Origin: Malassezia furfur
Lineage: Eukaryota
NCBI GenBank assembly: GCA_052055015.1
Contig: JBQJIT010000040.1
Strand: one strand, 5' to 3'
DNA: 44,926 nucleotides
Of the stretch, positions 376 through 38,774 are shown one piece after another; position 1 is the stretch's first letter, and every line of letters starts with the position of its first letter. Both the position numbers and the translations under genes were made by a program. The notes under the pieces are model-generated. The model was given only the letters and a program-made list of their open reading frames with translations, did not search any database and was not told the DNA's origin.

Positions 376-1371
376 ATGCCGGCAGGCCAGCTGGTCGCGC
401 CGTCGCAGACAGAAGAGGCCTTTGTGCTCGAGGCGCTGCAGAGCGCCGCGCTCCGCACGGATGGGCGCAAATTTGCCCAGGCACGCCCCGTGAACATCGC
501 TTTTGGCGAGCAGCTCGGATGGTGTGAGGTGTCGCTGGGGAAGACGGTGTAAGTACACGTGTCCTGACGCAGCGTCGTCGCGTCCGTCGATGCTCTCGTC
601 GTGCCTCCGCGCGAGGAGCGCCCATACGAGGGAATGATCAATATAAATACCGATATCACCCCGATGGCTGGTATGGAGTACGACGCGGGCGGCGTCGCTG
701 GCGCAACCGAATCGCGCGAACGCGAGGCGCTCTTTGATCGCATGATGGAACGTGCGCTGCGCTACACCGAGGCCATTGACCGTGAGGCGCTGTGCATCAT
801 CGCAGGGAAAAAGGTGTGGTGCATCAACTTAACCATCCACCTCGTGTCGGACGAAGGCGCGGCACTGGACGCTGCGGTGTTGGCAAGTTTGGTCGCCTTA
901 CGACACTTCCGTCGGCCGGATGTGACCATCGCCGACGGCGAGGTCATTGTGCATTCACCGGACGAGCGCGTGCCCGTGCCGCTCGCGTGCCACCATCTGC
1001 CGCTGTGTGTGTCGTACGCCGTCTTTTTGCTGCGACCCAAAAGCGACGAGGAACGCAGCCTGCTCCTTGCGCAGTCGCGCACCGCCGCGCGCAACGACCA
1101 AATGGACGAAGACGTGGCGCAGACGGAAGTAGCCGCCGCACTACTCGATCCGTCGCTACTGGAGCAGACGCTGGCGCATACGAGCATAACATTTGTCATC
1201 AACGCTCAGCGCGAAGTGTGCGTGCTTGACAAGGCCGGAGGCGCACCGCTGCCATACCAGACGATTCTTGCGCTTCTGGGGGATGCTGCGAAACGTGCTG
1301 CTGAAATGGCTGCACTCCTGGAACGTGCCCTGGCTGACGACGCCCGTCACCGCGTAGTGTCTGTAGAGTAG
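376..1371 (+). CDS. RRP45: Exosome complex RNase PH-like subunit Rrp45 (EXOSC9)
   Basis: Exon 1 376-548 (LRTDGRKF..GWCEVSLGKT). The 24-nt intron 549-572 (GTAAGT..CTGACGCAG) removes an in-frame TAA. Exon 2 has AIDREALCIIAGKKVW, ALRHFRRPDVT and PVPLACHHLP. Confidence 0.93.
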
Positions 1372-1398
1372 CGCACACGAGATACCCACAACCTCCAC

Positions 1399-2787
1399 AT
1401 GGACGGTGCGCCGCCTGCCGCGGAGGCTCCAGAAGCAGCATGGACGGTGCAGACAGCGCCGCTACCCATCGAGGACCCAGTCGTGGATGTGCAGCGCATG
1501 CATGTGCCATCCTTTGGACCGCGTCCGAGCTACTTGCAGTCTAGTCAGGCACAGCACTGGACGTTTAGCACCGATCAACTCGCGCAACTACGCTCGCAGG
1601 CCAACCAGCAGGCGGCCGACGCCTTGAACCAGTACGCGAGCGACGCCAAGGTACGTACATCCCTGACACAGGAATCGGTTCCAGCGCTACTGAGCGTTGT
1701 AGATGAGCTTGCCATTATTCGCTTCTATCTGCTCCGCATTGGGCGTCTCGTGCGGGCCTTCCAATTGCCGTCGCTCATTGAATCCAGCGCGATGACCCTG
1801 ATGAAGCGCTTCTACTTGCGCAACTCGTGCATGCAGTTTCACCCCAAATTGATCATGTACGTGACATGCTCACCCAGGCTCACGAGCATCTACCTCGCAT
1901 CCAAGGCGGAAAACTACCCCTTGCCCCTCGCCAAGTTCTGTGCGCAGGTCAATGAGGCAAGCGCCGGGAAACAGACACCGACGCCCTCAAAACCCTCGGC
2001 TGCACGCGGCGATGTGACAGAAAGCATCATTCGCGACCTAGAGTTCGGTATGGTACAGAGCCTGGATTTCGAGCTGGCTGTACATGGAGCGCAGCGTGCA
2101 CTCTACGGCCTAATCCTCGACTTCCAAACGCTACCAGACCCGCTCTCACGAGAGGACCTGACGGCGTTTGCAGCGGCAGTGCAGGGATATGTACAGGGTG
2201 CGCGCCTCACCGATGCCGAATTCATCTACGCGCCTCCGCACATTGCGCTGGCCGCATGCTGGATGTGTGAAACGAAAGGACAGTCGGGCAACATTTCGGG
2301 CAAAGATGTTGTCCGGAAATGGCTCACAGCCAAGCGTGAGCGCGCATCTACGGCGCGCGTCGCACAGCTTGAGGCACGCACGAATTGGCGCACCAAGAAG
2401 CACGCCTTGGAAAAGGCGCAGCAGGACGCGTCGTCCAAGCAAGCGCCATCGCCGGCGACGTCCGAGCCGGCTGCTTCATTGGACTACAGTATGGAGCACA
2501 TCAAGGAATCCGGCGGGTTTTTGTCCACCGCGGAGCTCGAGCACATCCTAGATGAGATTGCCGCACAAATCCGCGGCCTGGCGCCGGACATCCCCGCTGG
2601 TGCGCCGCTCAAGCCCCAGGTGGATATGGAGCAGGTGAAGAAAATTGACCTTGCTTTGCGTGCGTGCCTCGTGCTCTTTGAATCGGGCAACCAGTCCAGC
2701 TCGCGGAAACGCAGTGCGCAGGACGACGACGGGCGCGCCAAGCGGCAGCGCACGGACGCCCCCGTGGATAGCGACGACGAATTGTAG
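1399..2787 (+). CDS. CCL1: Cyclin H / Ccl1 (TFIIH CAK cyclin)
   Basis: [28 protein letters not shown] and [17 protein letters not shown]. Two in-frame 21-nt introns, 1651-1671 and 1857-1877; removing the second restores [17 protein letters not shown]. Confidence 0.9.
1857..1877 (+). other. 21-nt in-frame, stop-free intron (CCL1)
   Basis: GTACGTGACATGCTCACCCAG; excision removes a 7-aa insertion from the cyclin-box helix. Confidence 0.85.
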
Positions 2788-2803
2788 CTTCTCCACATCT
2801 GGC

Positions 2804-4875
2804 ATGGCCGCGTCGAGCGAGACGCGCCGCGACGCGTGCCGTCCCATTGCACGGCTCGATGCCGATGTCGTAAACCGCATTGCTGCGGGCGAGATCATTC
2901 ATCGGCCCTCCAACGCACTCAAGGAACTGCTCGAGAACAGCCTCGATGCGGAGGCAACGCAGATCAAAATTACGCTGCAGGACGGCGGGCTTAAACTGTT
3001 GCAGATCCAAGACAACGGCAAGGGTATCCCCGTGCAGGATATGCCACTTCTGTGCGAGCGATTTGCTACGTCGAAACTGCGTGCATTTGCTGACCTCGAG
3101 TCTATGACGACGTTTGGCTTCCGCGGAGAAGCGCTGGCAAGCATCAGCTTTGTCTCTGCGTCCGTCACTGCGGTGAGCAAGACGCGCGACGAGGACGTGG
3201 CCTACCAGTATGTGTCACACCTAACACAGAGCGTCGTATTTTGCCGGCACACTGCAGCCCCCCGCGGAGGGCCAAGAAGCCAGGCCGAAGCCATGTGCAG
3301 GAACCGACGGGACGACCATCACCGTGCGAGACCTCTTCTTCAACGCACCCCAGCGGCGACACGTATTTAAGTCGCCGTCTGAGGAATACAACCGTGCGCT
3401 GGATGTCGCGACCAAGTACGCCATCCACTACGGACATCGAGGGGTCGGCATTTCTGTCAAAAAAGCTGGGTCGTCTTCGTTTGATCTCAACACGCCGGGC
3501 CAGACGGGGCAGTCGACGCTCGACGTGATCCGGAACGTGCACGGTGCAACATTAGCACGCGATCTACTACATCTCCAGCCCTTGCACATGGAGTCGCTTG
3601 GGTGCACCGTTGAAGGTTGGGTTAGCAACGGGAATTGGGCGTCGAAAAAGACCACGTTCCTGTGCTTCATCAACAACCGGCTGGTGGAAAGTGCATCACT
3701 TCGTCGGTCGCTCGACACCATGTATGCCACACTGCTTCCCAAGGGGCGGCATCCATGGATCTATTTGTCACTGTCCATTGTGCCCAACCGCATCGACGTC
3801 AACGTCCATCCCACGAAGCAAGAGGTCCACTTCCTGGAGGAGGACGAAATTGTGGAACGCATCACTGCCTATACCCAAGATATTGTGTCCCAGCACAGCT
3901 CGTGTCGCGTCTTTTCCTCGGGCTCCCCAATGGGAGTCGCAACCTCGGAGAATACCGTGCAAGGTGGGTGCCGTAACTTACCCAGTGCTCGGCCCGCGGC
4001 AAAAGGGCTCAGATCCCCGGCACCTGGTGCGTGTCGACCACCACGCGCAGTCCTTGGATGCGATGATGGCCTCCGACACAGCCTCGGCGCAGCGTGGCCT
4101 GCAGGAACGCATTGCAGAGAGCCCATGCGAACTGACCAGCGTCCAGGAGCTTCGTACGGCGGTGTACCTCAAGCGTAGCGTCCCGCTCTCCGAGGTGATT
4201 CAAAACCATAAGTTTGTCGGCATTGTCGATGCACAGCAGGGGCAGTCACTCATTCAGCATGGCACGCAACTCTATCTCGTGGACCATGCCGCAGTTATTG
4301 AGGAATTTGCGTACCAGCTTGCCTTGCGTCAATTTGCGTCTTTTACGCCGATCCGTTTGGACCCTGCTCCATCGCTACGTGACCTGATCGGTGTGGGATT
4401 TGATGCGGAGGACGATCCGGCTAAGGCGGGCCTGGACCGCGGCGCCGTCGTGCAAAAGATCTACGACACTCTCCTGGCACGCGCCGAGATGCTCGAGGAG
4501 TACTTTGCGATCCGACTCAACGCAGAAGAAGGCACGGTCGAGACGATACCGGCTCTGCTGCCTCGTCACGGTACCATGGGCCTCGTGCTTGAGCGCCTGC
4601 CGTCGCTCTTTTTCCGCCTGGGGCCTCAGGTGGACTGGAGTCACGAAAAAGCATGCCTGGACGGCCTCTGCCGCGAGTTGGCCTATGCGCACGTCCCCTT
4701 CTCAGTGGGCCACACGGGCTTCGAGCAGGACGACGCGTGGACCATCCAGCATGTCTGGTTTGCCAGTTTCCTCGGGTCACGCGGCAAAATGGTGGTCTCC
4801 AAGACACTCGCCGTGCAGGCCTTTGTGCAGGTTGCCAGCCTGCCCGATCTGTACCGCGTCTTCGAACGATGTTAG
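2804..4875 (+). CDS. MLH1: DNA mismatch repair protein MutL homolog Mlh1
   Basis: [47 protein letters not shown] and C-terminal LYRVFERC. The 22-nt introns 3208-3229 and 3964-3985 join three ORF-track frames and restore [19 protein letters not shown]. Confidence 0.96.
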
Positions 4876-4892
4876 GGAAGGGTATATGTACA

Positions 4893-5514
4893 TTATTTTG
4901 TAGCGGAGCCTACGTCAAACACGCTGAGAAGCGCGAAGCACGCGTAGAACAGGCCGACAGGGTAGGCGACCAAGAACCGCTGGTTGTGCATTCCCAGGAT
5001 CGAGACGAAGATGCCGGACGCTGCAGTGCAGCACCAGAGAATGAACAAGGGCGAGATGATGTACCCAAACGTGCTGTTCAGGCGAACGAACACATTCAGG
5101 CAGCTCAGCAGGCACAGAGGCAGCAAGCAGTAGCCTAGCACGCTCGTCACGCGCGACGCATCAATGCCGCCCTCGGACATCAGATTCAAGAGAAAGTAGA
5201 TGGAGAGCACGCCCATGAGCCCCACGCCGTACACATACCCAAACTGCGACTTGCCCGCCTGCGTCAGTGCCTTCAAAACGTACCAGCAGGAGTAGCATGC
5301 CAAACACGAAGCAGAACAGCAGCGGCCCGGCGAGGTCCGTGTCGTCCATCATGTGCGCATCCTTAGGGTGGTCCGGTGAGAACTTGTGGAATGGGTTGAG
5401 CACCGCAAGTGACTTGTCCCAGACATGCGACAAGTTGATGTCGAGCTCTTCCATCAACGATGGCTCGCCGGGGAGGCCTCCCGTGCCAAACGCGCTCAGC
5501 CAGTCCATGCTCAT
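4893..5514 (-). CDS. YIP1: Yip1-domain Golgi/ER membrane protein (YIPF5/Yip1)
   Basis: GEPSLMEELDIN, DTDLAGPLLFC and SVLGYCLLP. The 25-nt intron 5259-5283 gives LLLL|AGKSQFGYVYG. Start is uncertain (5514 or 5508). Confidence 0.9.
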
Positions 5515-5624
5515 GTTGGTGTGCACCCAACCGCGCGACCACCCGCTGACTCAGCAAGGAGCCTGGCGCCGCCCAAAACTTTTTTGTTTTCCTTTTATCT
5601 GCGCCACATTCAAGCGGGGTTGCC

Positions 5625-6413
5625 ATGCCGCAGAACGAGTATATCGAGGAGCACATCAAACGCCATGGCCGCCGCCTGGATCACGAGGAGCGCATGCGCA
5701 AGAAGGAGGCGCGTAGCGTGCACCGTGCCTCAGCTGTGGCGCAAAAGACCGTCGGTCTGAAGGCCAAGATGCTCAACAAGAAGCGCCGCGCCGAAAAGGT
5801 GCAGATGAAGAAGACGCTCAAGCAGCACGAGGAGCGCGATGTGAAGAAGTCCGCCGCTCCGAGCGATCCCGACACCGCGCTGCCTGCCTACCTGCTCGAC
5901 CGCGAGGGCCAGAAGGATGCCAAGGCGCTGTCGAGTGCGGTCAAGGAGCGGCGCAAAGACAAAGCCGCGCGGTACAGCGTGCCGCTGCCGCAGGTGCGCG
6001 GTATTGCCGAAGATGAGGCTTTCAAGGTGGTCAAGACGGGCAAGCGCAAGCAGAATGGCTGGAAGCGCATGGTGACCAAGGCGACGTTTGTCGGCGACAA
6101 CTTCACCCGCAAGCCGCCCAAGCTCGAGCGGTTCATCCGCCCGATGGGACTGCGTTTCAAGAAGGCACACATTACGCACCCCGACCTGAAGGCGACGTTC
6201 CAGCTGCCCATCATCGGTGTGAAGAAGAACCCACAGTCGCCCACCTACACCCAGCTTGGCGTGCTGACCAAGGGTACGATCATCGAAGTGAATGTGTCCG
6301 ACTTGGGTATGGTCACGTCCGGCGGCAAGGTCGTCTGGGGCAAGTATGCGCAGATCACCAACAATCCCGAGAACGACGGCTGTGTCAACGGTGTGCTGCT
6401 GCTCTCGTCCTAA
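5625..6413 (+). CDS. NSA2: Ribosome biogenesis protein Nsa2
   Basis: [35 protein letters not shown] and [14 protein letters not shown]; intronless. Confidence 0.97.
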
Positions 6414-6447
6414 ACCAGAGCCTTTCTTTCTGTACCATAGACGTTCC

Positions 6448-7468
6448 CTACATGAATCCATTCACACTGAGCTCCATCGCAATGCGCAGCTGCTCCTCCT
6501 CTGGGAGAGACTCAAAGTTGTCCGGCAGACCCTCGAGGGTGCCCGGCTCACTCTCCTGTAGGGCATCGCTGGCCGCCGTCTCGGCGGGTACGTCCGCGAC
6601 CTCGATGGGATCTTCGGTGCCGCCTGGCGCCGGGTCATCGGTCGCGCGAAAGCGTCCAACGTTGCGCGACGCGGTTGTTTCGCTCGGTTTGCGGTACACG
6701 CGGTCCGTACGGAATGCCTGCCGGAACGCCTTGGTGAGGTTGTCCACCTTCACTTCGCCCATGCCCGGCAGCATGGCCAGTTTTTCGGGCGGCGCACGTG
6801 CCATGTCCGCAAGCGACTGGGTGAGGGGAGCCACGTACCCCGATGTGCGTCGACAAGGTCATGACATCTGTCTTGTTTACTCCACGCACGCTCGTCAGTA
6901 CGGCGGCGAGCTGGCTGCCATAGGTCTCGCCGACGCGCGTGCGAATCAGATCGGGCGGGCGCTGTTCAAACGCCTTGTAAGTCTCCAGATACCGCGCCGC
7001 CTCTTCTTGCCTGGATCAGCAAAGGCCACATACGTCCATGCCACTAGCAGCACCATGCGGTTGACCAGTGCAATTTTGGTGAGCTCCTTGATCGCTTGCT
7101 GGTGATCGCTCTTGGATCAGTCGGGACACGTACCACATCGCACAACACGAGGAGGACACGGAGGGTATACATATGTGCGAGTTTCTGGATCCGCATGTGA
7201 ATGTATTCGGGATGCAACCGAAAGTAGCGCAAACTAGGTGAGTTGTGCATCGCGCCTACCTCAAGAAGAGCACGCCGCTCGAGAGACCCACTTGGTAGTC
7301 CGGCACGATATCGGCATACTCCCATGCGACGCCCTTGATGTGCTGCAGAATTGGATTGCCCCTCTGGCAGCTGTTCACCAGGATCGAGTTGGAGGAGGCA
7401 TGCGCGCCGCGGATCAGCGGGTGCGGCCGTGCGCGCTGCGGACTTGCGTCCTCGCGTGCCTGGGCCAT
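6448..7468 (-). CDS. RAD10: DNA excision repair protein ERCC1/Rad10/Swi10
   Basis: Five exons; introns 7234-7259 (26 nt), 7111-7133 (23), 7011-7033 (23) and 6817-6838 (22). Spliced product has ILVNSCQRGNPIL, IVPDYQVG, LFLSLRYFRLHPEYI, VAWTQEEAARYLETYK and the HhH region LTSVRGVNKTD...LPGMGEVKV. Start is tentative. Confidence 0.92.
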
Positions 7469-7600
7469 GCCGGCGCGGTCACGCCTCCACTTTCCAAGGG
7501 CTCGGAGATGGCGTGGTTTCTGCACGCTGAGTAAGCAAGAAAAGCGAGCTAGAGTGCGCGCCGCTGCTGCTTCTTCCCACCGATTGTGTTTGATTCCGAT

Positions 7601-9763
7601 ATGCCTGGGACACTCGCTCTAGCCGCCGCTGCGCTGGTCGGTGTGCTCACGCTGTACTTCCTCAGCGGGGTGCTTTTTGGTGGTGGCGAGTCGAAGCCGG
7701 TGGAGGAAGAGACGCGCGACGACACCAACTTCGTGGAGCGGATGGCGAGCCAAGTACGTTGCGCGCGACTCATGCAGAAAAAACGGCTCGTTGTCTTCTT
7801 TGGTTCGCAGACGGGTACAGCCGAGGAGTATGCTATCCGCCTGGCGCGCGAAGCTAAGGAGCGTTACGGTGTCGGTGTGTTGGTACTCGACATCCAGGAC
7901 GAAGAGATGGACAAGCTCGACCAACTGCCGGAAGATTCGGTTGCGATCTTCGTCATGGCGACGTACGGCGAGGGTGAACCGACGGACAATGCGGTTGAGT
8001 TTATGGAGTTCTTGCGGTCGCCGGATGTCGCCTTCAGCGAGAACTCGACGCTGAACAACGTGCACTACGTCGCGCTCGGCCTCGGCAACAAGACATACGA
8101 AATGTACAACGAGACCATCAAACAGCTCGACGAGCGCATGCACGAGCTGGGTGCACAGCGCATTGGCGAAGTTGGTCTGTGCGACGACGATGCAAGCATC
8201 GAGGAGGACTATCTTGCGTGGAAGGACCCCATGTTTGAGCAGCTCGCGAGCTACCTTAACCTCGAGGAGGGCAACACGGGCGACATGTCCGACTTTACCG
8301 TCACCGAAGCAACTGAGGTCGCAGACGCATCGCGCATCTACCATGGCGAGCACCACCCGCGTGCGCTCAGCGGCGTCAAGGGCAACCACGACGCCCGCAA
8401 CCCGTATCCTGCGAGTGTTGTGCGCACGCATGAGCTGTTTACCGAGGGCATCGCCAGCCGCTCGTGTGTGCACATGGAGTTTGATATTCAGGGCTCCGGC
8501 ATCACCTACCAACACGGTGACCACCTGGCCGTCTGGCCGGTGAACCCGGAGCCGCAGGTCGAGCGGATGCTTGCGGTGCTTGGTCTGCAGGACAAGCGCA
8601 ACACGGTGGTGCACATCAAGTCGCTCGACCCTGCGCTGGCCAAGGTGCCGTTCCCTCAGCCGACGACGTACGAGGCCATTTTCCGGTACTACCTGGACAT
8701 CAACGCGCACGCCAGCCGTCAGGCGCTCGCGAGCTTTGTACCGTTTGCGCCCAACGTCGCGGCGCGCGAGAAGCTCGAGCGTCTGAGCAAGGACCGCGAC
8801 TTTTTTCTGTCGCACGTGAGCGACTACGGCTACAAGCTCGGCGAGGTGCTTCAGATGGTCGCGGGCGACTCGACGCGCGACGAAGACATCTCGTCGTCGA
8901 CTGTGTGGCCCATTCCGTTCGACCGCGTGATCTCGTGCGTGTCGCGCCTGACACCGCGCTTCTACTCGATCTCTTCGAGCCCGAAGCTGTCGCCCGACCG
9001 CATCCACGTCACGGCGGTCGTGCTGCGCTACACGCCGTCTCAGGGTACCAAGGACGTGTACGGTCTTGCGAGCAACTTTATCAGCTCGGTCAAGATGGCG
9101 CAGAACAGCGAGACGCCCGGTCTGGAGGACCCGCGGCACGGCACGCCGCAGTACCACCTGCGCGGCCCGCGCGATGCGTACGTCGACGAGGCTGCCGGCC
9201 AGTACCGTGTGCCGATCCACGTGCGCCGCTCGACCTTCCGGCTGCCAACGAGCACCAAGATCCCGATTATCATGGTCGGCCCCGGCACGGGTGTGTCGCC
9301 TTTCCGTTCGTTTGTACAGGAGCGCGTCGCGAACGCGCTCAAGGCGAAGGTGAAGCTTGGCGCAGATGCGCTGCAAGACTGGGCGGACATTACGCTGTAC
9401 TACGGGTGCCGCCGGAGCAACGAGGACTTCCTGTACAAGGACGAGTGGCCCGAGTACGCCGAGAAGCTCGACAACAAGTTCAACCTGCGTGTTTCGCTGA
9501 GCCGTGAGGTGTTCAACCCAGACGGTTCGAAGAAGTACGTGCAGGACCTCATCTGGGAGGACCGCGAGAAGCTCGCGCACCAGATTCTCCAGCAGCGCGC
9601 CCACGTGTACATCTGCGGTGAGGGCAAAGGCATGGCGCAGGACGTGGAGCACACCCTGGCCAAGATCCTCGGTGAGGCCAAGGGCGGCGGCATTGATGTC
9701 GGCCTGGCGGAACTCAAGGTGCTCAAGGACCGGCACCGTTTGGCGCTGGATGTCTGGTCATAG
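7601..9763 (+). CDS. NCP1: NADPH-cytochrome P450 reductase
   Basis: N-terminal TM anchor, FFGSQTGTAEEYA, ATYGEGEPTDNA, RFYSISSS, MVGPGTGVSPFRSF and C-terminal DVWS. In-frame 24-nt intron 7754-7777. Confidence 0.96.
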   Translation: MPGTLALAAAALVGVLTLYFLSGVLFGGGESKPVEEETRDDTNFVERMASQVRCARLMQKKRLVVFFGSQTGTAEEYAIRLAREAKERYGVGVLVLDIQDEEMDKLDQLPEDSVAIFVMATYGEGEPTDNAVEFMEFLRSPDVAFSENSTLNNVHYVALGLGNKTYEMYNETIKQLDERMHELGAQRIGEVGLCDDDASIEEDYLAWKDPMFEQLASYLNLEEGNTGDMSDFTVTEATEVADASRIYHGEHHPRALSGVKGNHDARNPYPASVVRTHELFTEGIASRSCVHMEFDIQGSGITYQHGDHLAVWPVNPEPQVERMLAVLGLQDKRNTVVHIKSLDPALAKVPFPQPTTYEAIFRYYLDINAHASRQALASFVPFAPNVAAREKLERLSKDRDFFLSHVSDYGYKLGEVLQMVAGDSTRDEDISSSTVWPIPFDRVISCVSRLTPRFYSISSSPKLSPDRIHVTAVVLRYTPSQGTKDVYGLASNFISSVKMAQNSETPGLEDPRHGTPQYHLRGPRDAYVDEAAGQYRVPIHVRRSTFRLPTSTKIPIIMVGPGTGVSPFRSFVQERVANALKAKVKLGADALQDWADITLYYGCRRSNEDFLYKDEWPEYAEKLDNKFNLRVSLSREVFNPDGSKKYVQDLIWEDREKLAHQILQQRAHVYICGEGKGMAQDVEHTLAKILGEAKGGGIDVGLAELKVLKDRHRLALDVWS

Positions 9764-10578
9764 CTACGTAGTCGTATCCGGAGGTGGGAGCATCGCGCCG
9801 TGGTTGGCGAGCCTGCGTTAGTGGGCGCCAGCGTACCGGTCGGCCATCTCGTTGCCGTGCGTGCCGGCGTGCGCGCGCACGTACACGAGCGACGGGCGCG
9901 GCATGCGCGACGTGAGGGCGTGGTCCAGCGAGACAATCAAATCCTTGTTCTGTACGTCGCCGCCCGTGCTGGTACGCCAACCGTTGCGTTTCCACGTAGG
10001 GATCCATTGTGTGACGGCCTTCATTGCGTACTGGCTGTCGGTAAAGATGCGCAGCGGCTTGCTCGGCTCCGGGCATGTCTCGATTGCCCGCAGGATCGCC
10101 GTGAGCTCGGCGCGGTTATTGGTTTGCACGGGGCCGGCCAGGCGGCACGCCAGGTTCAGATGGTGGTAGCGCGCATCGCTCCAGTACACTCCATAGCCAG
10201 CGACCGCGCCATCACGTCCGTTGCCGCGCGACGAGCCGTCGGTGTACACGGTGAGGCCGCCGGGTGTTGCGTCCGGCAGAATGCGCACGGCCTTGGCGGG
10301 CGTGATGAGCTCATTGTCGTCGTCCTCAGCCTTCCGCTTGGGTGGTGCGGGTTTGGGTGCGGGCTTGGGGACAGACGCTACGCGCGGTGCATCCTCGCCT
10401 GCGACAAATGCGTCCGCCTCGGCGCGCGTGGGAAACGCCTTGTATCGGCTGCCGTTGTGCCGCTCGACCTGCGCCCTGCACTGTTCCCTGCGTGAGATGC
10501 GCCGACGTACCACGTTTCGTACACGCCCGGCTTGCGTCCGACGCGCACCGCGTAAAACTTCGTCTGCCGCCGGGCCAT
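9764..10578 (-). CDS. RNH1: Ribonuclease H1 (N-terminal hybrid-binding domain + RNase H domain)
   Basis: FYAVRVGRKPGVYETWEQCRAQV after the 23-nt intron 10488-10510, then VYTDGSSRGNG, QTNNRAEL and IFTDSQY. HGNEMADRLA forms after the 24-nt stop-containing intron 9813-9836. Confidence 0.93.
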
Positions 10579-10707
10579 GGCGCTCGCCGCGCCGTACCAC
10601 AGGATGTTCCCCCCCCGCACGATGCACGAGGCTGCTTAGGTAACGCGCGGACGCGCGCGCCGCGCGCCCAAACCCGTACACACCTCCACCCTCTCACCTC
10701 CGCGCGC

Positions 10708-12782: not shown

Positions 12783-12953
12783 TGGATGTAGCAACGATAC
12801 CCGCGTGTTGGTGTAGATGCGCGTGCGCGCCAGGGAGCGTGGCTCAGCGGTGCATAACACACCACCGCCACAGGGCGTCCGGCATACCGCCGCCACAGGG
12901 CGCCGATACACCCGCTCTTGTATCCATCTACGCCATGTATGCATTCTACCACA

Positions 12954-15620: not shown

Positions 15621-15749
15621 CGTCGCTAACGCGCCCCGCCAGGACGGCGCCGCATCTTTTCTTCTGCCCCCACGTGAAGGGTCACGTGACCCGCGGGCAG
15701 CGCCGGGCGCCAGCAGCCCCGAGCCGGAGCGTGGCTTTCCTGATCTACC
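15621..15749. promoter_or_regulatory. Bidirectional promoter NIP1/ATP5 with two E-boxes
   Basis: 129 bp between divergent ATGs; CACGTG at 15671-15676 and GTCACGTGAC at 15681-15690. Confidence 0.6.
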
Positions 15750-16546
15750 ATGGCCTCCCGTTTTGTGCCCCGTGTGCTGAGCCAGGTACGTGCGCGATCG
15801 CGCGATGAGTGGGCTGATACTGACCGATCCTAGACCCGCGGCTACGCGTCGCAGTCCGCTGCCGTCCGGCCCCCGCTCCAGATCAACACGCTGTCGGGTA
15901 CGTTTGCGTGTGATGGCTCCTTCGATACTGACCGCCAGGCCGCTACGCGTCGGCTGCCTACGTCGCCGCGCTCACCAAGGGCGAGAAGACCCTTGAGAAG
16001 GTGACCACCGACCTCAAGGGCTTCCACGAGGCGCTCGGTAGCAACTCGCCCGACGCCGTGAAGCTGCGCACGTTCCTTACCAACCCGACCATCTCGGCGT
16101 CGAACAAGGACCAGGTCTTCTCGGCGCTGAGCACCAAGGGTGGTGCGGATGAGATCACGCGGTACGCGAATGCATCTGACGCAGCAACCTGTTTGACACC
16201 CTGTCGGACAACAACCGCCTCAGCCTCACCGAAAAGGTGATCGACGACTTCCTGCAGCTCATCAGCGCGCACCAGGGTGAGGTCGCGATCCAGATCACGA
16301 GCGCCAAGCCGCTCGACAAGTCGACCATCTCGCGCCTCGAGTCGTCGCTCAAGCAGTCGCAGTTCGCCAGCGCCTCGGACGTGAAGAAGGTCAAGTTCGA
16401 GTACAGGGTCAACCCGAGCATCCAGGGTGGCCTCGAGGTGCACTTTGGTGACCGCACCGTCGACCTCAGCGTGTCGAGCCGCGTGAACAAGCTCAACGCG
16501 CTCCTGCGCGGTACGTCAAATCCACTGACCGACAGAGTCGATCTAG
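15750..16546 (+). CDS. ATP5: Mitochondrial ATP synthase subunit 5 (OSCP)
   Basis: Five exons; introns 15786-15833 (48 nt), 15898-15938 (41), 16162-16184 (23) and 16511-16535 (25). Product [89 protein letters not shown]. Confidence 0.93.
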
Positions 16547-16719
16547 ATATCGGTAGCCGCGATAGCTCACTCGATCTCTTAGCGATTCACTGCTTGCGAG
16601 CCCGTGTGGTTATGCGGCACGATGCCCGACATCGTGACGCCCATAGCCCCTAGCTCCGTGGCGTGTTTGGCCCCGACACGCCGGACGCCGCGACGGACAA
16701 CACTCCTCCACCTGCCAGC

Positions 16720-19271: not shown

Positions 19272-19287
19272 ACACCCTACATACATA

Positions 19288-29180: not shown

Positions 29181-30777
29181 TTAGTTTGATCGTGCGTGGA
29201 TGAGCGGTACGACTGTCCATGGGCGCGGTTCGTCTGCGGACGGTTCGGCTGACCCCAGCGCGGCTCGGTGGCATGCGTCGCAGCAGTACGTCACAATTTG
29301 TGCCATGCCATCCAGACGTACTTTCTCGCCATTTTGACTCTTAACCGCATCGCCACCGAGTACGGCTACCGTTGCGTCGCGCATCCCGCCACACACTTCA
29401 CATGGGACATCCTGCTCGCCACGCACCACGAGTTTCCGCGGTGCGTAATATTGCCTAGCGAGTGACGCCAACATCCACCGCCGCAAGAATATGGTCCGTG
29501 GATACGCATCCAACGCCATGCGAGGGAGTAAAGGTCTGGGTCAGAACGCGACGTACTGCGCCCAGTCAATCGTCCATAGGTGTTCACAGTCTCCTCCGTG
29601 CAGCAACCAGTAGGGTTGGGCGAATGCCGTCGGCGGTAATGCATCCAGTCGTGTCGTAAGAGGTCCACCGTACATGGTGCAAGAGGGAAGCCCAGAATCG
29701 GAGGTGCCTAACAGCGCCCGGACGTAGCTGTCGTCCGATTCGGGGTCGAGTCGGGCATACAACTGATTCTCAAGAAGAACGGCGACGTCGGTCTCTAGTC
29801 GGCGCCCGGTGTAGCGTGGGTATGCCGTACCTTGCCCGGCGTCATGGGGCCCTGTCCAGTGTCCTGCAAGGCCGGGTGCATCGTTATGCATGGTTCCACG
29901 CCTACCCTCGCGTTCGGGAATTTCAGCGTTCCGGCACATCATTTCGTCGACCAAATCGGCCAGGGTATGCCGCGTGGTGAGGTGTATGCGCTGGGCAAGA
30001 ATAATCTCGCCATCTATCTCATCCGTCGTCGGTGTTTCAAAAGTGCCGCTTGCGACGCCTACGCGGCTGCGCATCTTGCGCGTCAGGGCAACAGCGCGGC
30101 GAGCGTACACCGAAATCTGCAAAAGGGCGGGTGTACCATCCGTAGGCACGGGTCGTATCGGCTGCGACAGCCGCTGAGGCTGCATTAGCAAAGTGCTTAC
30201 CTTGTTCTCCATCGCGTCCTGATCCTGCACCGAGAGGATGCGCGCATACAGAGGGAGGTTGTCATACCTAGGTCAGCTTCACCACGCACTTGTCCATGCG
30301 AAAAGCCGGCGGCGCCATCTCGGCAATCATCTTACGTTGTTCAGCGCATCCTTCTGGAATATTCATATATGTTCCTGATGCATATTCCATCCAAGTGGCC
30401 GCGATAGTGGGCACCAGATCAGCGTGCGGGACCTCGCACCGTGTGGCTGCTGCTTCGCATCGCTGCTGCACCAGAAGTCTAGCACGTTCGTCGAGTTCCG
30501 TCGTATATAATGGCTGCGTGCACTCCACTGCCAGCCGCTTCTCGGCCTCTACGAGCGGAGCTGGCTCCGTCGGGACACCGAGCTCAAGCTGCGCCGTACT
30601 CATGCACGTCGTCCACGAAGGCACACAGGCCTCCACATCGCGCAGCCCGTCGCCATGAGCGACAGTGCGCTTAGCGTTCACAAAACCCGCGCGGTGATCT
30701 ATGAGTTTAGGCAGGTTGTCTGCAATTGAGTGTACATGAACGATGCAGTCGTGCAATCGGTGCGGGCCGGGTGACAT
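29181..30777 (-). CDS. SNAPC3: snRNA-activating protein complex subunit 3 (SNAP50/SNAPC3)-like
   Basis: PYWLLHGGDCEHLWTID, YPRTIF, CEVC and CCDACH zinc-finger motifs. Introns 30268-30289 (22 nt), 30180-30200 (21, in-frame) and 29536-29556 (21, in-frame TGA) join three ORFs. Confidence 0.75.
29536..29556 (-). other. 21-nt spliceosomal intron with in-frame stop (SNAPC3)
   Basis: GTACGTCGCGTTCTGACCCAG contains an in-frame TGA; excision joins the HxGxCEH segment to the C-terminal Cys motifs. Confidence 0.85.
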
Positions 30778-30802: not shown

Positions 30803-31110
30803 TTACAAGTGCACACCAACAGCGTTAAACAGAGCAACGACGCCGGTGCCCGCAAATAGGCTCGCTCCAACGGCGAGCAATGCTTTTTGCAGGGAACGCT
30901 TGCCGCGCGGGAAGCTGGGTAAGCGGACCACGTACGTCGAGAAGAAGAACGCAAGCGCAAAGGCCAGCACGAGCGAAACTAGCGCAATGGCGCGCATCGC
31001 GTGCACCGGAATCATTGGCCGCGCATCTGGAAGGGTACGAAACTCATCCTGGGGTCAGCCGCTTTCCAACGCACCTGTACCGCTTTGTACGCCGCGTAGT
31101 CCACCGTCAT
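30803..31110 (-). CDS. OST5: Oligosaccharyltransferase small subunit Ost5/TMEM258
   Basis: Spliced ~86-aa two-TM protein MTVDYAAYKAVQ|DEFRTLP..LAFALAFFFST|FPRG..ASLFAGTGVVALFNAVGVHL. Introns 31049-31074 (26 nt) and 30915-30935 (21 nt). Confidence 0.78.
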
Positions 31111-31228
31111 ACCGCTCGGAGTCGACGTGGGACGTGCGGAGATATTCGGCCGATGTGAATTTTGACCCTGCTGTGCAGTGCATCAGGCGATTTTAGGAGG
31201 GCACCACCACCCGGCTAGGCACACAGCG

Positions 31229-32735
31229 ATGAAAGTAGTCGCGGCGGTGGTCAACCGCGGGTTCCGCCGTGTGGAACGCGCGGCCGAGCGCGTCATTGGT
31301 CGTGCCGGCCCCCTGTTTGTCGCCATTTATCTCGGCTTGGTTGGTACAGGCGTTTGGCTGTTCTGTACGTTGCATCACTGACCCAGTCGCGTGTGTTTTC
31401 CCGACGCTCGTCTCGGTTCCTACGCCATTACAGCGCTTGTTCTCGATTGGAAACCCGGGGCATATTTTGCTCGGCCTGCCCATGGCCATACATGACAGCT
31501 GCAGGCAGGAACCGCGTGCGATGCTCCGTTGCGTTTGGCTCACGGTAGGCTGTTTCTACCTGGCATCCATGATGGGCTGGTCTTACTACATGGCTTGCAC
31601 CGAGCCGCCTGGGTCTCCATCGCATGGCATGTCTGAAAAGCTACACGAGCGCCGCATCGGGCCTGGGAGCGGCATGTGGTGGCAACAAAAGTGCGAGCGC
31701 ATTACCAGCGCCACTTTTGGGCTGCCATGCAACGAAGAGGAGGAGGGTCGCGCGCACGACTCGATTCCTTATGCTCACTCGACGTGCGACCGCCTGACGC
31801 CGCGCAAGGTTGCGCCGGGACCCAAAGCTACCTACGAGCCCAACGCCGACCTCTCCACATCTTACCGCTTCTGCAAGAAATGTGCGCAGGTGCCTCTGGT
31901 AGAAGCCATTGCGCGGCTCCCACCTGAGCTGCGTAAGGTTGAAAAATGGAACCGGCGTGACCATCTACTCCGCATGAAGCAGAAGGCGGCGGAGGAAGGT
32001 GCTGCTTCAGCGCAGGATGTCGCAGAACTCTCGTCCAGCCTGCCGCCCGAGCTGTTCATTGACAGTGACGAGGAAAGTTTGTGCGATATTTCACAATGGC
32101 TTGGAGAGGATGCGCAAAACACTGTGCTACCTCCCAAACCAGAGCGCGCGCACCATTGCAAGACATGCAAAATGTGTGTGTTCAAATTTGACCACCACTG
32201 TCCCTGGATTAACCAGTGCGTCGGGCTGGGTAATGAGCGCTACTTTGTCTTGTTCATGCTCTGGTTTTCGCTGGGTACCTCTGTATTTGGCGTAACGGCG
32301 TGGGAAATTGTGAACGAGGCGCTGTGGCACTACAAGTGGCCGTATCGATATGCGCCGCGTGTCTTGTTCATCGCGATCTATGCCAAGGCGGTCGTTATGG
32401 GTGCGGCCGTGTTTGTGCTGGCACTGTGGCACCTCTACCTCGTTTCCAAAGGCGAGACGAGCGTTGAGAGCCAGGACAATGCACACTACCGAAAAATGGC
32501 CAAGGAGCGGAACGACTGCTTTGTGAATGTGTACGATATGGGTCGTCTGCGAAATCTCCAGATCTTCTTTAATGTCGGACGCGGCCTGAAATACGGCTAT
32601 TATACCCTCCTTCTTCCGTGCCGTATCGAGCCCTACTCGGACGGCTGGCGCTATGCCAAGAGCCCCGGCCTGCTAGGCCGCCACATGGGTATCAAGCAAG
32701 AAGAAGAGTTTACCGACGACGACGGCGAGCCTTAG
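31229..32735 (+). CDS. DHHC palmitoyltransferase (ZDHHC16-like)
   Basis: [44 protein letters not shown] and [11 protein letters not shown]. The 22-nt intron 31365-31386 links exon 1 ([19 protein letters not shown]). Confidence 0.92.
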
Positions 32736-32879
32736 GATGAATAAAAATGCTCTTCACATGTAGAGATGCGAAGCTTATGTATAGTGCAGTGACCAATACA
32801 ACTATGGTCTGATGGAGACGAAGCAGGTATGCTAGATTGGTGACAGGGTATAGTCCAGTACAGAATCAGATCGTGTCTT

Positions 32880-35247: not shown

Positions 35248-35914
35248 ATGTCCTCGACACGGCCGTCATGGGATTACATTTTAAAGTTTATTATTATCGG
35301 TGACGCATCCGTCGGCAAGTCATCGCTCCTTGTGCGTTTGACTGAGGACCGGTTTTTGGTGAACTCGGATGCGACGATCGGGATCGAGTTTGGCTCGCAT
35401 ATCATTTCGCTCGAGTCGGGCGAGCGGCTGAAACTCCAGGTGTGGGACACAGCCGGGAGCGAGCAGTTCCGGAGCGTACGTATAAGCAGCGGCTTACACA
35501 GATCACACGCTCTTACTACAAAGGTGCAGCTGGGTGCCTGCTGGTGTATGACGTAACCGTGCGCGACACCTTTGCCCACCTGCCCTCTTGGCTACATGAT
35601 GTGCGCGAACAGGCCGAAGAAAACGCGACGATTGCGCTCGTCGGCAACATGGCCGATCGCCCGGCTGATCAGCGCGCTGTGTCTAAGGAAGAGGCTGAGA
35701 CATTCGCGGCAGAGAATAAGTACGTGACGTCCGCTGATGCAGCCTCTTGTTTTTCGAGACGAGCGCCAAGACGGGCGAGAATGTCGTTGAAGTGTTCACG
35801 GCCGTCGCAAGTGCGATCCTCGCGCGCTACAAAGCCAGCCCACCCGACGAACAACCATCTTCCACAACAGTAGACCCGCGTGCGCGTCCCGCGCAGGGCG
35901 GATGTTGCTCGTGA
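35248..35914 (+). CDS. Rab-family small GTPase (Rab2/4/14-like)
   Basis: IGDASVGKSS, TIGIEFGS, WDTAGSEQFRS|ITRSYY (26-nt intron 35476-35501), LLFFETSAKTGENV after the 23-nt intron 35720-35742, and a C-terminal GGCCS prenylation motif. Confidence 0.9.
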
Positions 35915-35952
35915 TCTATGTGTACAGTAGGTAGACACTACCTTTTTTCGGC

Positions 35953-36711
35953 TCATGCGGCAGCGGCTGCTGGCGCCTGAGATTCGGACGGTGCTGGCGC
36001 CACACGCCAGTCGCCGCCGCTTGCACCCTGGCGCCAATCACGCGGCGCCGGGGCCGGCAGCGGCAAGTGTTGCCGTGCGGCTTCGGCCTCCTGCATCGCG
36101 AGGCGTTCCTTCCATCCAAGGCGCAAGAATGCCTCGCGCGCAAATTGCTCGCGCCGGCGCTCGCGACTCTCGACTTGGAGCTCGTGGTGCAGCTCGCGCG
36201 CCAGTTCCGGGGATGGGTGGCGCAGGTGCATAAAGTTGCACAACCCTCCGCGGTTGCATTCGTTCGTCTCGTTCTGCCGGCAGCACGCCTCGCGGAAGTC
36301 AGTGACGGGCGAAAGCTCCGCAAAGAGCGGCTTGCCGTTGAACCAGCGCATGTTGAGTTCGTCCACAGCATGCTGTGCATCGTCTTCGGTCTTGAACCGC
36401 GCGTAGACATTGCCGATGAGGTGGTCGCCGACGTTATCGCAGACGTGCATCTCGACAAGTTCTCCAAGTTTCCCGAGCTCGACAAACATGTCCTGGTAAA
36501 AGTCGTCGAACTGTGCCTGGAGTTCGGCATCGGTGAGGGTACAGTTGGGGTTCAGGTGACGGGGGTTCTGGTACACGTTGGAGAGGAGGATAGTGCGCGA
36601 TGCTGTAGGCTCAACGTGCCTTCGTGAGCACCGCTCACCGTGCCGGCATGCACCGATCTTGAAATAGAACGAGCAGTTGACCTTGTCCTGCTCAGAACCA
36701 AAGTTGCTCAT
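35953..36711 (-). CDS. U2AF1: Splicing factor U2AF small subunit (U2AF35/U2AF23)
   Basis: FGSEQDKVNCSFYFKIGACRHGERCSRRH (ZnF1), UHM VCDNVGDHLIGNVY and ELSPVTDFREACCRQ..CNRGGLCNFMH (ZnF2). Confidence 0.95.
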   Translation of the reverse strand: MSNFGSEQDKVNCSFYFKIGACRHGERCSRRHVEPTASRTILLSNVYQNPRHLNPNCTLTDAELQAQFDDFYQDMFVELGKLGELVEMHVCDNVGDHLIGNVYARFKTEDDAQHAVDELNMRWFNGKPLFAELSPVTDFREACCRQNETNECNRGGLCNFMHLRHPSPELARELHHELQVESRERRREQFAREAFLRLGWKERLAMQEAEAARQHLPLPAPAPRDWRQGASGGDWRVAPAPSESQAPAAAAA

Positions 36712-36804
36712 CGTGGTGGCGCGCCAAGCGCCGTCGTCGCCGACCCTCCACATAAACCCACGTGGCACCCGCGCCGTCGACGCGACACGGTGCGGACGAC
36801 GGCG

Positions 36805-38774
36805 ATGACGGTGAGCCATCGGAAGCCGCGGCCGACGCAGCCGAATCAGGACCGGACTGGTACGTGTGTGTTGCTGAGTATGCAGCTGCGGAGCCTGGCG
36901 TGCGCTACCACTGCGATGTGTGTGGTGCCGACATCACGCTGACCGTGCGCATTCGGTGTGCGGGTGGGTGCGAAGACTTTGACCTGTGCGGTACGTGCTT
37001 CTGCACAGGCGCCGAAGTCGGCAAGCACAAGGCGTGGCATGACTACCGCGTGATTGAGCAGCATTCGCAGCCAATCTACTGTCCCGACTGGGGCGTCGAC
37101 GAGGAGCTGTTGCTCATTGATGGGTGCCAGCTGTATGGCCTGGGCAACTGGGCTGATATTGCCGACCACATCGGCAATCGGACCAAGGAGGAGGTCGAGC
37201 ACCACTTCATCAGCGTGTACATTGAGGGCAAGAATGGGCTGCCATCCGGCAACGCGCGCGCGGCTGAGGCCGTGACGGCCTGGCGCGAGGCGCACCCCGA
37301 GGCCGCCGATGCGCCGGGCGAGGAGCCGCTGCCGATCGTGGGCCCCGACCCCAACTTTGCGTACGACATTGCGCCCGAGGACTTTTTGCGCGAGCGGCGC
37401 GAGCGCATCGAGCGGCTGCGCGAGGCGCAGGCCGCGTTTGTGCCGCCCAAGCCGAACGCCAAGCCGCTGGTGTCGGCGCCGACGACGCACAGTGAGCTCA
37501 CCGGGTTCATGCCCGGGCGCCTCGAGTTTGAGCATGAGTTTGAGCAGGACGCCGAGCACCTCGTGAAGGACATGGAGTTCGGGCGTGTGTACGCGTTCGG
37601 CGGCGATGCGATGCCGAACGAGTTTGACGCGCTCGGCGAGCAAGGCGCAACACAGGGCCATGCGCGCATGGAGGCGAGCGGGCGCGGTGGGCCCGTGAAC
37701 CAGCGCACTAGCGAGGGGTCCACGGACGAGAACGAGGACGAGTTTACCGACGCGCCCGAAGAGGCAGCGGCCGACGATGCCGCGTCGGCAGCGACCGCAT
37801 CCAAGACGCACACCAAGGCGGAGGCCGAGGCGCTGGGCAATGCAGCGGCCGACGAGGCGGAGGCGAGTGCGCCGGTGGATGCGGCCAAGCCCAAGGCCGA
37901 TGGGGAGGCGGTTGGGGACAAGCCCGAGGGCGACAAGGACGCCGCCGAGACGACCGACGACCGGGCGCCTGACTGGGACGAAGACCCGCTGGACCTCGAC
38001 CTGAAGCTGGCGGTGCTCGACATGTACAACGATGCGCTGGACAAGCGCGGGCGCAAGAAGCGCTTCCTGTTTGAGCGCAATCTGGTCGATTACCGGCGCA
38101 ACGTCGCCGCCGAGCGGCGGCGGCCGAAAGAGGAGCGCGACCTGCTGGCGCGCATCCGGCACTTTGCCACGCTGCAGACGGCGGCCGATTTTGAAGAACT
38201 GTACCATAATCTCTGCTACGAAGAGGCACTCAAAAAGACGGTGCACCAGCTGCAGCAGTACCGGCGTGTGGGCCTCACGACCTTTGCCGAGGCGGCGCGC
38301 TACGACAAGGAGGCCGCCGAGCGCACCAAGCGGCAGCTCGAGGCGGCCGAGGGCACGCTTTCGCTCGGCGGCGCGCACGCGGGGCGTGTGCGGCACCGCG
38401 AGCGGAGCGTCTCGGCGCTGGACGACGCCAAGGCGGACGACTTTTCGTTTGCGAATGCGCCGGGCATCCAGCTGCTCAGTGCGCAGGAGCAGCAGCTGTG
38501 CTCGCTGCTGCACATCCTGCCCGAGCCCTTTTTGGTGCTCAAGGCGGCGCTGCTCACCTACGCATACGCACACCACAAGGCGCTCACGCTGACGCACTGC
38601 CAGACGCTGTGCAACATTGCGCCGCGCAAGCTGAGCCGCGTGTACGACTTTTTCGTGCAGCAGGGCTACGTGCACGCCGTGCTGGATGCGTGCGACTGGC
38701 GCAGCGAGCGCGCGACCAAGCGCGCGCGGCGCAGCGCCTCGTCTGGGACGCCCGTATACCCCGCCGATACCTAG
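36805..38774 (+). CDS. ADA2: SAGA transcriptional adaptor Ada2
   Basis: Exon 1 MTVSHRKPR.., then a 26-nt intron 36860-36885. ZZ finger (YHCDVC..FDLCGTCF), SANT (WGVDEELLLIDG..GLGNWADIADHIG), GFMPGRLEFEHEF and SWIRM (LLSAQEQQLC). Confidence 0.95.

Follow-up and report, generated by a model that had tools for sequence, protein, structure and literature searches.

A near-fixed minimal intron with a 21-nt lower edge predicted in a 45-kb stretch of Malassezia furfur DNA

We analysed a stretch of 44,926 nt from Malassezia furfur (assembly GCA_052055015.1, contig JBQJIT010000040.1; this whole stretch is called the window in the following), in which three-frame translation of every gene together with a relaxed motif scan placed 35 GT..AG introns in 17 genes. 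With few exceptions these introns are of extremely small size: twelve are 21 nt long, five 22 nt, six 23 nt, four 24 nt, two 25 nt and four 26 nt, and only two are longer, with 41 nt and 48 nt. Within the window, this corresponds to a median of 23 nt and a mean of 24.0 nt, the mode of 21 nt is at the same time the minimum, and 33 of the 35 fall between 21 and 26 nt. The narrow distribution and the median below 30 nt that define an ultra-short class of introns are thus seen here. The same 35 introns in 17 genes, the same length histogram and the same outer coordinates, 549 and 36885, had been put forward in an original prediction for this DNA and were rebuilt independently in the present study. 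Judged by all signals in the DNA and the encoded proteins, these elements are very probably ordinary U2-dependent spliceosomal introns of a yeast from the M. furfur/M. brasiliensis clade, which have been compacted to a near-fixed minimal layout.

All 35 introns start with GT and end with AG. The donor reads GTACGT in 20 and GTATGT in six of them, and every one of the 35 conforms to GTRNGY. A branch motif CTNAY is present in 34, the single deviation being CTGAG in the intron at 36860–36885. The variants of the motif are CTGAC (15 introns), CTCAC (7), CTTAC (4), CTAAC (3), CTGAT (3) and others (3). As acceptor, CAG is used 30 times and TAG three times, while AAG occurs twice (7111–7133 and 23469–23489). 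The predicted branch A is located at intron position 16 in twelve cases, at 17 in six, 18 in seven, 19 in four, 20 in two and 21 in two; in the two long introns, both of which belong to ATP5, it is at positions 34 and 38, and nowhere is it found before position 16. From this A to the end of the intron the distance is exactly 5 nt in 29 of 35. The general layout is GTAYGT, a spacer of at least 6 nt, CTNAY, 1 nt and YAG, and a 21-nt intron is composed of the 6-nt donor, 6 nt of spacer, the 5-nt CTNAY, one base and the 3 nt of YAG. The pile-up of lengths at 21 nt, with its sharp lower boundary, and the branch A at position 16, both noted in the original prediction, are therefore borne out within the window. 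There is no 3-nt rhythm in the lengths, as 22 and 23 nt are no less favoured than 24 nt, and hence it looks incidental that 21 is a multiple of three. The window is compact fungal DNA with a G+C content of about 62%, that of the 35 introns being 57%. Interruptions are frequent: 17 of about 30 genes carry introns, and over 37 kb these number about 35.

These features are those of U2-type introns: GT..AG with a donor consensus suited to pairing with U1 and U6, a branch-point motif with an A ahead of the acceptor, and the restoration of both the reading frame and the conserved protein upon removal. Introns of the U12 type have a rigid donor, /RTATCCTT, and a branch resembling TCCTTAAC; this form is absent from all 35 donors and branch motifs. 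Short non-spliceosomal introns, either of the IRE1/HAC1-XBP1 or of the tRNA type, are cleaved within paired stem-loops and lack GT-AG ends and a branch motif; all 35 have both, at fixed spacing. A scan of the window (1–44926) against Rfam returned no family at the gathering score.

The intron signals occur far more often than by chance. A strict pattern, GT[AG]NG[TC]..[CT]TNA[CT]..YAG, was searched on both strands and compared with 100 Markov shuffles. At lengths of 21–26 nt it has 35 matches where 7.8 are expected; for 21, 22, 23, 24, 25 and 26 nt the counts are 12, 6, 6, 4, 3 and 4, with 1.1–1.5 expected per length. At 12–20 nt (two matches versus 4.5 expected) and beyond 26 nt the pattern was no more frequent than background. 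Twenty-nine of the 35 matches at 21–26 nt were accepted as introns, and the six rejected ones correspond roughly to the number expected by chance. Three introns are not covered by the strict motif, namely the two with an AAG acceptor and the one with the CTGAG branch motif. The fixed 21-nt pattern GTRNGYNNNNNNCTNAYNYAG has eleven matches compared to 0.08 expected (100 dinucleotide shuffles, the largest count being 1); all eleven are on the coding strand of the gene that they interrupt. When the spacer was varied with one base kept between CTNAY and YAG, spacers of 6, 7, 8, 9, 10 and 11 nt yielded 11, 5, 5, 4, 1 and 2 matches, each with an expectation of at most 0.15, and spacers of 0–5 nt yielded none. 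With zero bases between CTNAY and YAG no match was obtained at any spacer tested. The matrix of spacers has two sharp edges, one at a spacer of 6 nt and the other at a single nucleotide in front of YAG.

The rejected matches of 21–26 nt comprise a 25-nt segment at 15809–15833 (+), which is nested in the 48-nt ATP5 intron and gives the wrong frame; four segments that are antisense to a gene or break an open frame (8466–8491 (+), 8689–8710 (-), 16252–16272 (-) and 26643–26665 (-)); and the longer one of two nested alternatives. Among shorter candidates, a 14-nt match at 17371–17384 is antisense to GWT1, an 18-nt match at 8693–8710 is antisense to the reductase gene, and a 17-nt GT..AG segment at 23997–24013 would disrupt the frame of LSB6.

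Removal of the 35 segments leads to an uninterrupted coding sequence in 17 out of 17 genes, and for 15 of these a methionine start and a terminal stop could be shown; for the remaining two, RNH1 and OST5, the outer coordinates used in this test are approximate. Eighteen introns have a length that is not a multiple of three and their removal repairs a frame break. The other 17 (49%) are multiples of three. Five of them contain an in-frame stop: the four named in the original prediction, at 549–572, 9813–9836, 24357–24377 and 29536–29556, were found again, and the 48-nt ATP5 intron is a fifth. The remaining twelve are free of stops and, therefore, evidence from outside the reading frame is needed for these. 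Such evidence exists for ten of the twelve, which are absent from homologous proteins or from the intron-free DNA of a related lineage. In total, 28 of the 35 introns are backed by homologues, by the continuity of a Pfam profile or by intron-free DNA of a related species, five follow from frame logic or an in-frame stop only, and two (30180–30200 and 30915–30935) from the motif only. It may be added that in 21-nt introns of phase 2 the in-frame TGA is part of the branch motif CTGAC (24357–24377, 29536–29556), and versions with CTCAC or CTTAC stay open. If a stop-free intron with a length divisible by three were retained, this would add 7–8 residues to the protein and not truncate it, but the sample is too small to judge whether selection acts on this property.

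Two Malassezia-like contig pieces of 22 kb (positions 1–21986 each), here called L001 and L003, came from a metagenome scan with an alignment of Malassezia-only reductase sequences. Their gene order wholly matches that of window positions 1–19763 (19.7 kb). In L001, 19 junctions of the window were tested, and 17 of them are bridged there by uninterrupted DNA, 15 without any gap and two with an indel of 1–2 aa. At the other two junctions, those of ATP5 introns 1 and 2, L001 has introns of its own of 39 and 40 nt, which are the only ones in its 22 kb. Applied reciprocally to L003 and L001, the junction test yields many low-scoring false positives, and only scores of at least 85 were counted. In this way 16 introns were verified in L003, two of 24 nt, six of 25, one of 26, one of 28, two of 29 and one each of 30, 34, 40 and 45 nt. 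Inspection of their sequences shows at least 18 nt from the donor to the branch A and 6–8 nt from there to the intron end. Intron content varies over the identical gene order, with 24 introns in the window, at least 16 in L003 and two in L001. Each lineage has private introns; the extra ones of L003 are in MLH1, YIP1, eIF3c, ATP5 and GWT1.

The reductase gene also allows the host to be placed. Its NADPH-cytochrome P450 reductase exon shares 97% identity with M. brasiliensis, 85% with M. psittaci and 66–70% with four other named Malassezia species. The M. brasiliensis protein (P0121) has 712 aa, the length of the spliced model in the window, and its GenBank entry omits the 24-nt intron. As judged by these identities, the window belongs to the M. 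furfur/M. brasiliensis clade. Parental lineage 1 of M. furfur is described as being more closely related to M. brasiliensis than it is to lineage 2 (PMC10410736, a study of 2023). According to the same source, funannotate was used for the annotation of these genomes, with M. sympodialis proteins and, where available, RNA-seq as a guide.

That Malassezia introns are small has been recognised before. A review describes the genus as having 'very short introns' (PMC7426719). For M. sympodialis, a curated set of 5350 introns has a mean length of 30 bp, 99% of them with RNA-seq support (PMC5389616, Table 2), in agreement with the value of about 30 nt cited for this species in the original prediction. 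The introns of M. restricta have a mean of 37.2 and a median of 30 and were annotated with a minimum length of 15–20 (PMC6473144, PMC9241646), and older annotations of M. globosa give averages of 76–79 (PMC4634964). The original prediction held that a published 21-nt mode for this lineage would make the finding real but not new. In the sections of the literature covered by our full-text search (including PMC3560662, PMC5654937, PMC4634964 and PMC8476143), neither a 21-nt mode nor a floor is stated for Malassezia, although very short introns of the genus are, as described, already published. More generally, neither a mode or minimum nor a spacing between branch and acceptor was found in the sections searched for any species of Malassezia; a minimum for other species may be shown by the intron-size distribution of PMC5389616 (Supplementary Fig. 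S8) or the supporting information of PMC10410736. A survey of fungal introns (PMC8476143) does not mention Malassezia intron length in the parts covered, and a 2026 paper on lineages with introns below 30 bp, i.e. ciliates, microsporidia, dicyemids and myxozoans, does not list Malassezia in the parts available (PMC13644364). Thus, the system is an extreme case of a trait recognised in the genus and is neither new in kind nor unannotated. What seems to be unreported in the searched literature are the 21-nt mode and floor, the fixed 5-nt spacing between branch and intron end, and the difference in floor from one sister lineage to the other.

A comparison with other short-intron systems shows which features are shared. 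The other Malassezia, among them M. sympodialis, M. restricta and M. arunalokei, likewise have compact genomes and GT-AG introns of a few tens of bases, but their published averages are clearly above the median of 23 nt and the mode and minimum of 21 nt in the window. The ciliate Stentor coeruleus has introns of 15–16 nt with the branch A at position 10 (PMC9505925; also cited in PMC13644364). These are also ultra-short GT-AG introns of near-fixed length, and their branch A is 5 nt before the end, as in 29 of the 35 introns studied here. However, from donor to branch there are 10 nt in Stentor and at least 16 nt in the window, and the Stentor introns are described as AU-rich with a weak branch consensus, in contrast to the 57% G+C and the strong CTNAY found here. 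Introns of about 25 bp are known from other ciliates (PMC5014332), and medians of 22–27 bp from microsporidia, dicyemids and myxozoans (PMC13644364). All of these have similarly narrow length distributions in the low 20s. Yet they are protists, parasites and highly reduced animals, whereas the host of the window is a free-living, culturable basidiomycete yeast. In intron-poor eukaryotes, too, the branch has been described to lie at a constrained and very short distance from the 3' splice site (Irimia and Roy 2008, PMC2483917). This likeness is a lead only and, unlike those organisms, the window is not intron-poor.

How could such introns be recognised and why do they pile up at 21 nt? We suggest that they are recognised across the intron (intron definition) and that the first usable AG after the branch would serve as acceptor; as there are only 5 nt between branch and end, no room is left for a polypyrimidine tract. 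The pile-up may then result from deletion pressure in a compact genome (roughly 7–9 Mb according to the literature), meeting a lineage-specific minimum spacing that would be needed for the simultaneous recognition of donor and branch. This minimum would be set by the splicing machinery of the lineage and not by spliceosomes in general. Indeed, the floor differs between lineages, 21 nt in the window and 24 nt in L003, which would make it a property of the machinery of each lineage. The original prediction had seen the introns close to the steric limit of a spliceosome, and one might go further and take 21 nt as a universal minimum below which splicing becomes impossible, the lariat loop then having less than about 16 nt. 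This would agree with the lack of any intron below 21 nt, with 12 of 35 at exactly this length and with the failure of spacers of 0–5 nt to give a single match. But the introns of 15–16 nt in Stentor coeruleus, with their branch A at position 10 (PMC9505925), and the edge at 24 nt in L003, showing that it moves between close relatives, contradict both versions of this idea; a universal minimum appears highly improbable and the 21-nt edge is better described as a lineage-specific setting. The 5-nt spacing from branch to end, which is common to Stentor and the window, may be near a general minimum, and the 16 nt from donor to branch are not.

Several other explanations and a number of points that weigh against our interpretation have to be considered. 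That the segments are no introns at all but chance motifs, assembly errors or lesions of pseudogenes has nothing in its favour beyond the six rejected motif matches, which are at about chance level. It is virtually ruled out by the 17 genes that are uninterrupted only after removal, by boundaries agreeing with intron-free orthologous DNA at 17 of 19 junctions, by introns of other lengths at the same sites in L003, and by the GenBank model of the closest named species, which uses the same boundary. More serious is the possibility that some of the twelve stop-free segments divisible by three are translated insertions of 7–8 aa or are optionally retained, and that the 21-nt class is therefore over-counted. 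Twelve of the 17 multiples of three do lack a stop, and two of them, 30180–30200 and 30915–30935, have a motif but no homologue on their side. For the latter, in OST5, the Ost5 profile and the spacing in the collinear human TMEM258 even fit the unspliced form slightly better: 13 profile positions are to be accommodated by 15 residues without splicing or by 8 with splicing (the PDB alignment with TMEM258 being weak). Nevertheless, ten of the twelve are missing from homologues or from intron-free L001 DNA. Furthermore, the fixed pattern is expected only 0.08 times per window, which makes coincidence unlikely even for the cases with nothing but the motif. Over-counting of the 21-nt class is, on this evidence, unlikely.

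The floor itself was drawn from 35 introns in one window of 45 kb, and rarer, shorter ones may exist elsewhere in the genome. A genome-wide tail, for instance of 18–20 nt, that turns the floor into an effect of small sample size is rather unlikely. Against it, the distribution is truncated and not tapered, with 12 introns at the minimum followed by 5, 6, 4, 2 and 4, and both spacings are sharp-edged; moreover, a relative with 81% identity in GWT1 keeps all three GWT1 introns at 21 nt. The comparison of orthologous lengths across Malassezia, proposed with the original prediction, gave a divided answer. Where the window has introns of 21 nt, those of L003 at the orthologous sites measure 28, 30 and 26 nt, and at the eleven measurable sites in total (24–45 nt in L003) the L003 intron is the longer one at seven. 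At the other four of the eleven, however, it is 1–3 nt shorter than that of the window. Therefore, it would be untrue that introns are always shorter here, and the clear difference is the 21-nt class. Finally, all 35 introns are known here from DNA and protein sequence, and intron definition, the choice of the first AG, the absence of a pyrimidine-tract factor and the interplay of deletion pressure with a spacing limit are read from the anatomy of the introns. Weighing these points, we still regard compacted, ordinary U2-dependent introns as the explanation that very probably applies.

The individual introns are described in the following in the order of the genes. In RRP45 (RNase PH) the 24-nt intron at 549–572 (+) contains an in-frame stop; L001 is ungapped at this junction and L003 carries a 34-nt intron at the same site. 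The cyclin H gene CCL1 has two 21-nt introns. The first one, at 1651–1671 (+), follows the fixed pattern and has no in-frame stop. L001 is continuous across it with a 1-aa indel and human cyclin H shows a gap of 5 aa, so that support is moderate. At the second, 1857–1877 (+), the ungapped L001 DNA agrees in 35 of 36 residues, a 28-nt intron is present in L003, and human cyclin H (1kxu) has a 7-aa gap compared to the read-through. Both MLH1 introns are 22 nt long and repair a frame shift. L001 is ungapped at intron 1 (3208–3229, +), and at intron 2 (3964–3985, +) L001 and L003 are continuous with indels of 2 aa. The 25-nt intron of YIP1 at 5259–5283 (-) also repairs a frame shift, is ungapped in L001 and corresponds to a 24-nt intron in L003.

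Four introns interrupt the ERCC1/Rad10 gene on the minus strand. At intron 1 (26 nt, 7234–7259) the Pfam Rad10 profile runs from 1 to 43 and then from 45 to 78. Intron 2 (23 nt, 7111–7133), which has one of the AAG acceptors, repairs a frame shift. At both of these L001 is ungapped and L003 has a 25-nt intron. Introns 3 (23 nt, 7011–7033) and 4 (22 nt, 6817–6838) repair frame shifts and are ungapped in L001 as well as in L003. In the NADPH-cytochrome P450 reductase gene, the M. brasiliensis GenBank protein is spliced exactly at the 24-nt intron, 7754–7777 (+); L001 is ungapped there and L003 is continuous across the junction, with a 3-aa indel upstream. For RNase H1, removal of the 23-nt intron 1 at 10488–10510 (-) repairs a frame shift and the profile of the N-terminal domain resumes at position 18 of 44 with the first residue of the next exon. 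The 24-nt intron 2 at 9813–9836 (-) has an in-frame TAA; the RNase_H profile has reached position 133 of 141 at the end of the exon, and a short last exon comes next.

ATP5, coding for OSCP, contains the two long introns and two short ones. Intron 1, at 15786–15833 (+) with 48 nt, has an in-frame stop, and its orthologous introns are 45 nt in L003 (19247–19291) and 39 nt in L001 (17499–17537). Intron 2, at 15898–15938 (+) with 41 nt, repairs a frame shift and has orthologous introns of 40 nt in both L003 (19353–19392) and L001 (17599–17638). These two introns are long in all three lineages, which suggests that they are kept for a reason, for example an effect on the expression of a highly expressed gene. 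At the 23-nt intron 3, 16162–16184 (+), the OSCP profile covers 4–67 and then 71–171, L001 is ungapped and L003 has a 25-nt intron. The 25-nt intron 4 at 16511–16535 (+) repairs a frame shift; in L001 the joined C-terminus is ungapped up to the stop, and a 33-nt candidate is present in L003 at 20002–20034.

All three introns of GWT1 are 21 nt long and lie on the plus strand. The read-through of intron 1 (17636–17656) faces a 7-aa gap in 12 homologues without the segment, ten of which are named fungal proteins; the profile continues from 283 to 286, L001 is ungapped and L003 has a 30-nt intron. For intron 2 (17809–17829) there is again a 7-aa gap in the same homologues, with the exception of one unnamed open reading frame (ORF) call that reads into its own intron. 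The profile passes from 339 to 340, L001 is ungapped, and the read-through in L003 meets a stop. Intron 3 (17992–18012) has a 7-aa gap in the ten named fungal homologues, the two unnamed ones ending before this intron; the profile passes from 397 to 398 and runs on to 434, L001 is ungapped and L003 has a 26-nt intron. The three read-through segments of 7 aa each are kept only in two unnamed, unspliced ORF calls from close relatives, with 99% and 81% identity. In the 81% relative all three introns have the same length of 21 nt, reading through in frame as 7 aa, and the donor and CTGAC-N-CAG signals are conserved. No named Malassezia protein was among the best 120 matches of the GWT1 search, whereas searches with the reductase and LSB6 did return named Malassezia. 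A host outside the genus, which this GWT1 result might suggest, is contradicted by the reductase identities. The GWT1 proteins of named species may be contained in clusters that are represented by longer unspliced ORF calls, or may be mis-modelled.

In the PP2C phosphatase gene PTC1, the 23-nt intron at 21730–21752 (-) separates profile positions 3–211 and 212–255, and read-through meets a stop after 6 codons. An Rrn11-like gene on the minus strand has three introns. At the 21-nt intron 1, 23469–23489, with the second AAG acceptor, the read-through VRHALTK coincides with a 7-aa gap in P0362–P0366 and others, and the unspliced relatives have 'VR..' at one end of it and '..LTQ' at the other. The read-through of the 21-nt intron 2 at 23368–23388, RYVSASH, is likewise a 7-aa gap in homologues. 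The 24-nt intron 3 at 22635–22658 has no stop inside, the first one being met after 29 codons of read-through, and is moderately supported; the unspliced ORF calls of four relatives start with 'VR..' exactly at this point, which is the signature of a GTRCGT donor.

The type II PI 4-kinase gene LSB6 has a micro-exon of 54 nt at 24378–24431 (+), located between two 21-nt introns and encoding the conserved NPKRVFLRKYFWWAMGRP. Intron 1 (24357–24377, +) contains an in-frame TGA, and its junction ..EEPYGNL/NPK.. is found in eight of eleven aligned full-length homologues, the remaining three skipping the micro-exon. Intron 2 (24432–24452, +) is free of in-frame stops, and its read-through corresponds to a 7-aa gap in all homologues that span the site. 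Spliced twice, the protein reads ..DEEPYGNL/NPKRVFLRKYFWWAMGRP/CLIPNFSYLSE.. and is collinear with those of Ustilago, Ceraceosorus, Meira, Rhodotorula and three named Malassezia.

The SNAPC3-like gene on the minus strand has a 22-nt intron 1 (30268–30289), which repairs a frame shift and whose read-through meets a stop after 8 codons. Its intron 2 (21 nt, 30180–30200) has the fixed pattern only and no in-frame stop, and a PDB search with the read-through gave a single chance match. The 21-nt intron 3 (29536–29556) has an in-frame TGA and the fixed pattern, with no backing from homologues. The segment at 30806–31111 (-) encodes a small membrane protein with two helices, identified as the oligosaccharyltransferase subunit OST5 (Pfam PF05251, E = 6e-14). 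Its 26-nt intron 1 at 31049–31074 (-) repairs a frame shift and joins the exon with the ATG to the Ost5 domain. The 21-nt intron 2 at 30915–30935 (-) has the fixed pattern only and no in-frame stop and is the least certain of the set. In the gene of a DHHC palmitoyltransferase, the 22-nt intron at 31365–31386 (+) repairs a frame shift; read-through meets a stop after 6 codons, and in the downstream frame about 80 codons pass without an ATG. Two introns interrupt the gene of a Rab GTPase. The Ras profile runs over positions 1–63 and 64–133 on the two sides of the 26-nt intron 1 (35476–35501, +) and resumes with 137–161 after the 23-nt intron 2 (35720–35742, +), which also repairs a frame shift. 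Finally, the 26-nt intron of ADA2 at 36860–36885 (+), the one with the CTGAG branch motif, repairs a frame shift; the sole upstream ATG is in another frame, and the ZZ_ADA2 domain begins at residue 9 of exon 2.

The small size of these introns has consequences for annotation. STAR treats gaps below 21 as deletions, and the default minimum intron of AUGUSTUS is higher. For several aligners and gene finders, 21 nt does not exceed the smallest intron allowed by default, which makes gene models in this clade fragile. Indeed, the micro-exon between the two 21-nt introns is retained in three of six named Malassezia LSB6 proteins. In the other three, from M. psittaci, Malassezia sp. CBS 17886 and M. 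pachydermatis, all of its 18 conserved residues are missing; it has probably been skipped in the annotation of these models. Similarly, 11 conserved residues with which the flavodoxin domain starts, directly after the intron site (window 7754–7810), are missing from one of six named reductases, that of M. psittaci (P0123, 702 aa); this looks like an over-long intron call. Hence, public models are likely to contain errors at these introns. The original prediction had gone further in expecting the system to be largely unannotated. This expectation did not hold, because the M. brasiliensis reductase is spliced at the 24-nt intron, half of the six LSB6 models keep the micro-exon and M. restricta was annotated with a minimum of 15–20 (PMC6473144).

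A genome-wide description of these introns would fill a small gap, and no new kind of splicing is revealed by them. We may go one step further and propose, tentatively and with more doubt than confidence, that the M. furfur/M. brasiliensis lineage has the shortest intron mode recorded so far within the Dikarya. It would be built on a quantised unit of 21 nt (6+6+5+1+3) with a lariat loop of 16 nt and 5 nt from branch to acceptor, its bound being shifted by 3 nt compared to the sister lineage with 24 nt. If this is true, the geometry of the spliceosome would have co-evolved recently, or a factor for the 3' site would have been lost or altered, within one genus. It would also mean that a culturable, transformable yeast model for the splicing of minimal introns has been overlooked by the literature on intron evolution. 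The sharp double edge in the window, together with the different edge in a sister lineage, allows the question of a minimum spacing to be addressed by experiment in a yeast accessible to culture and transformation.

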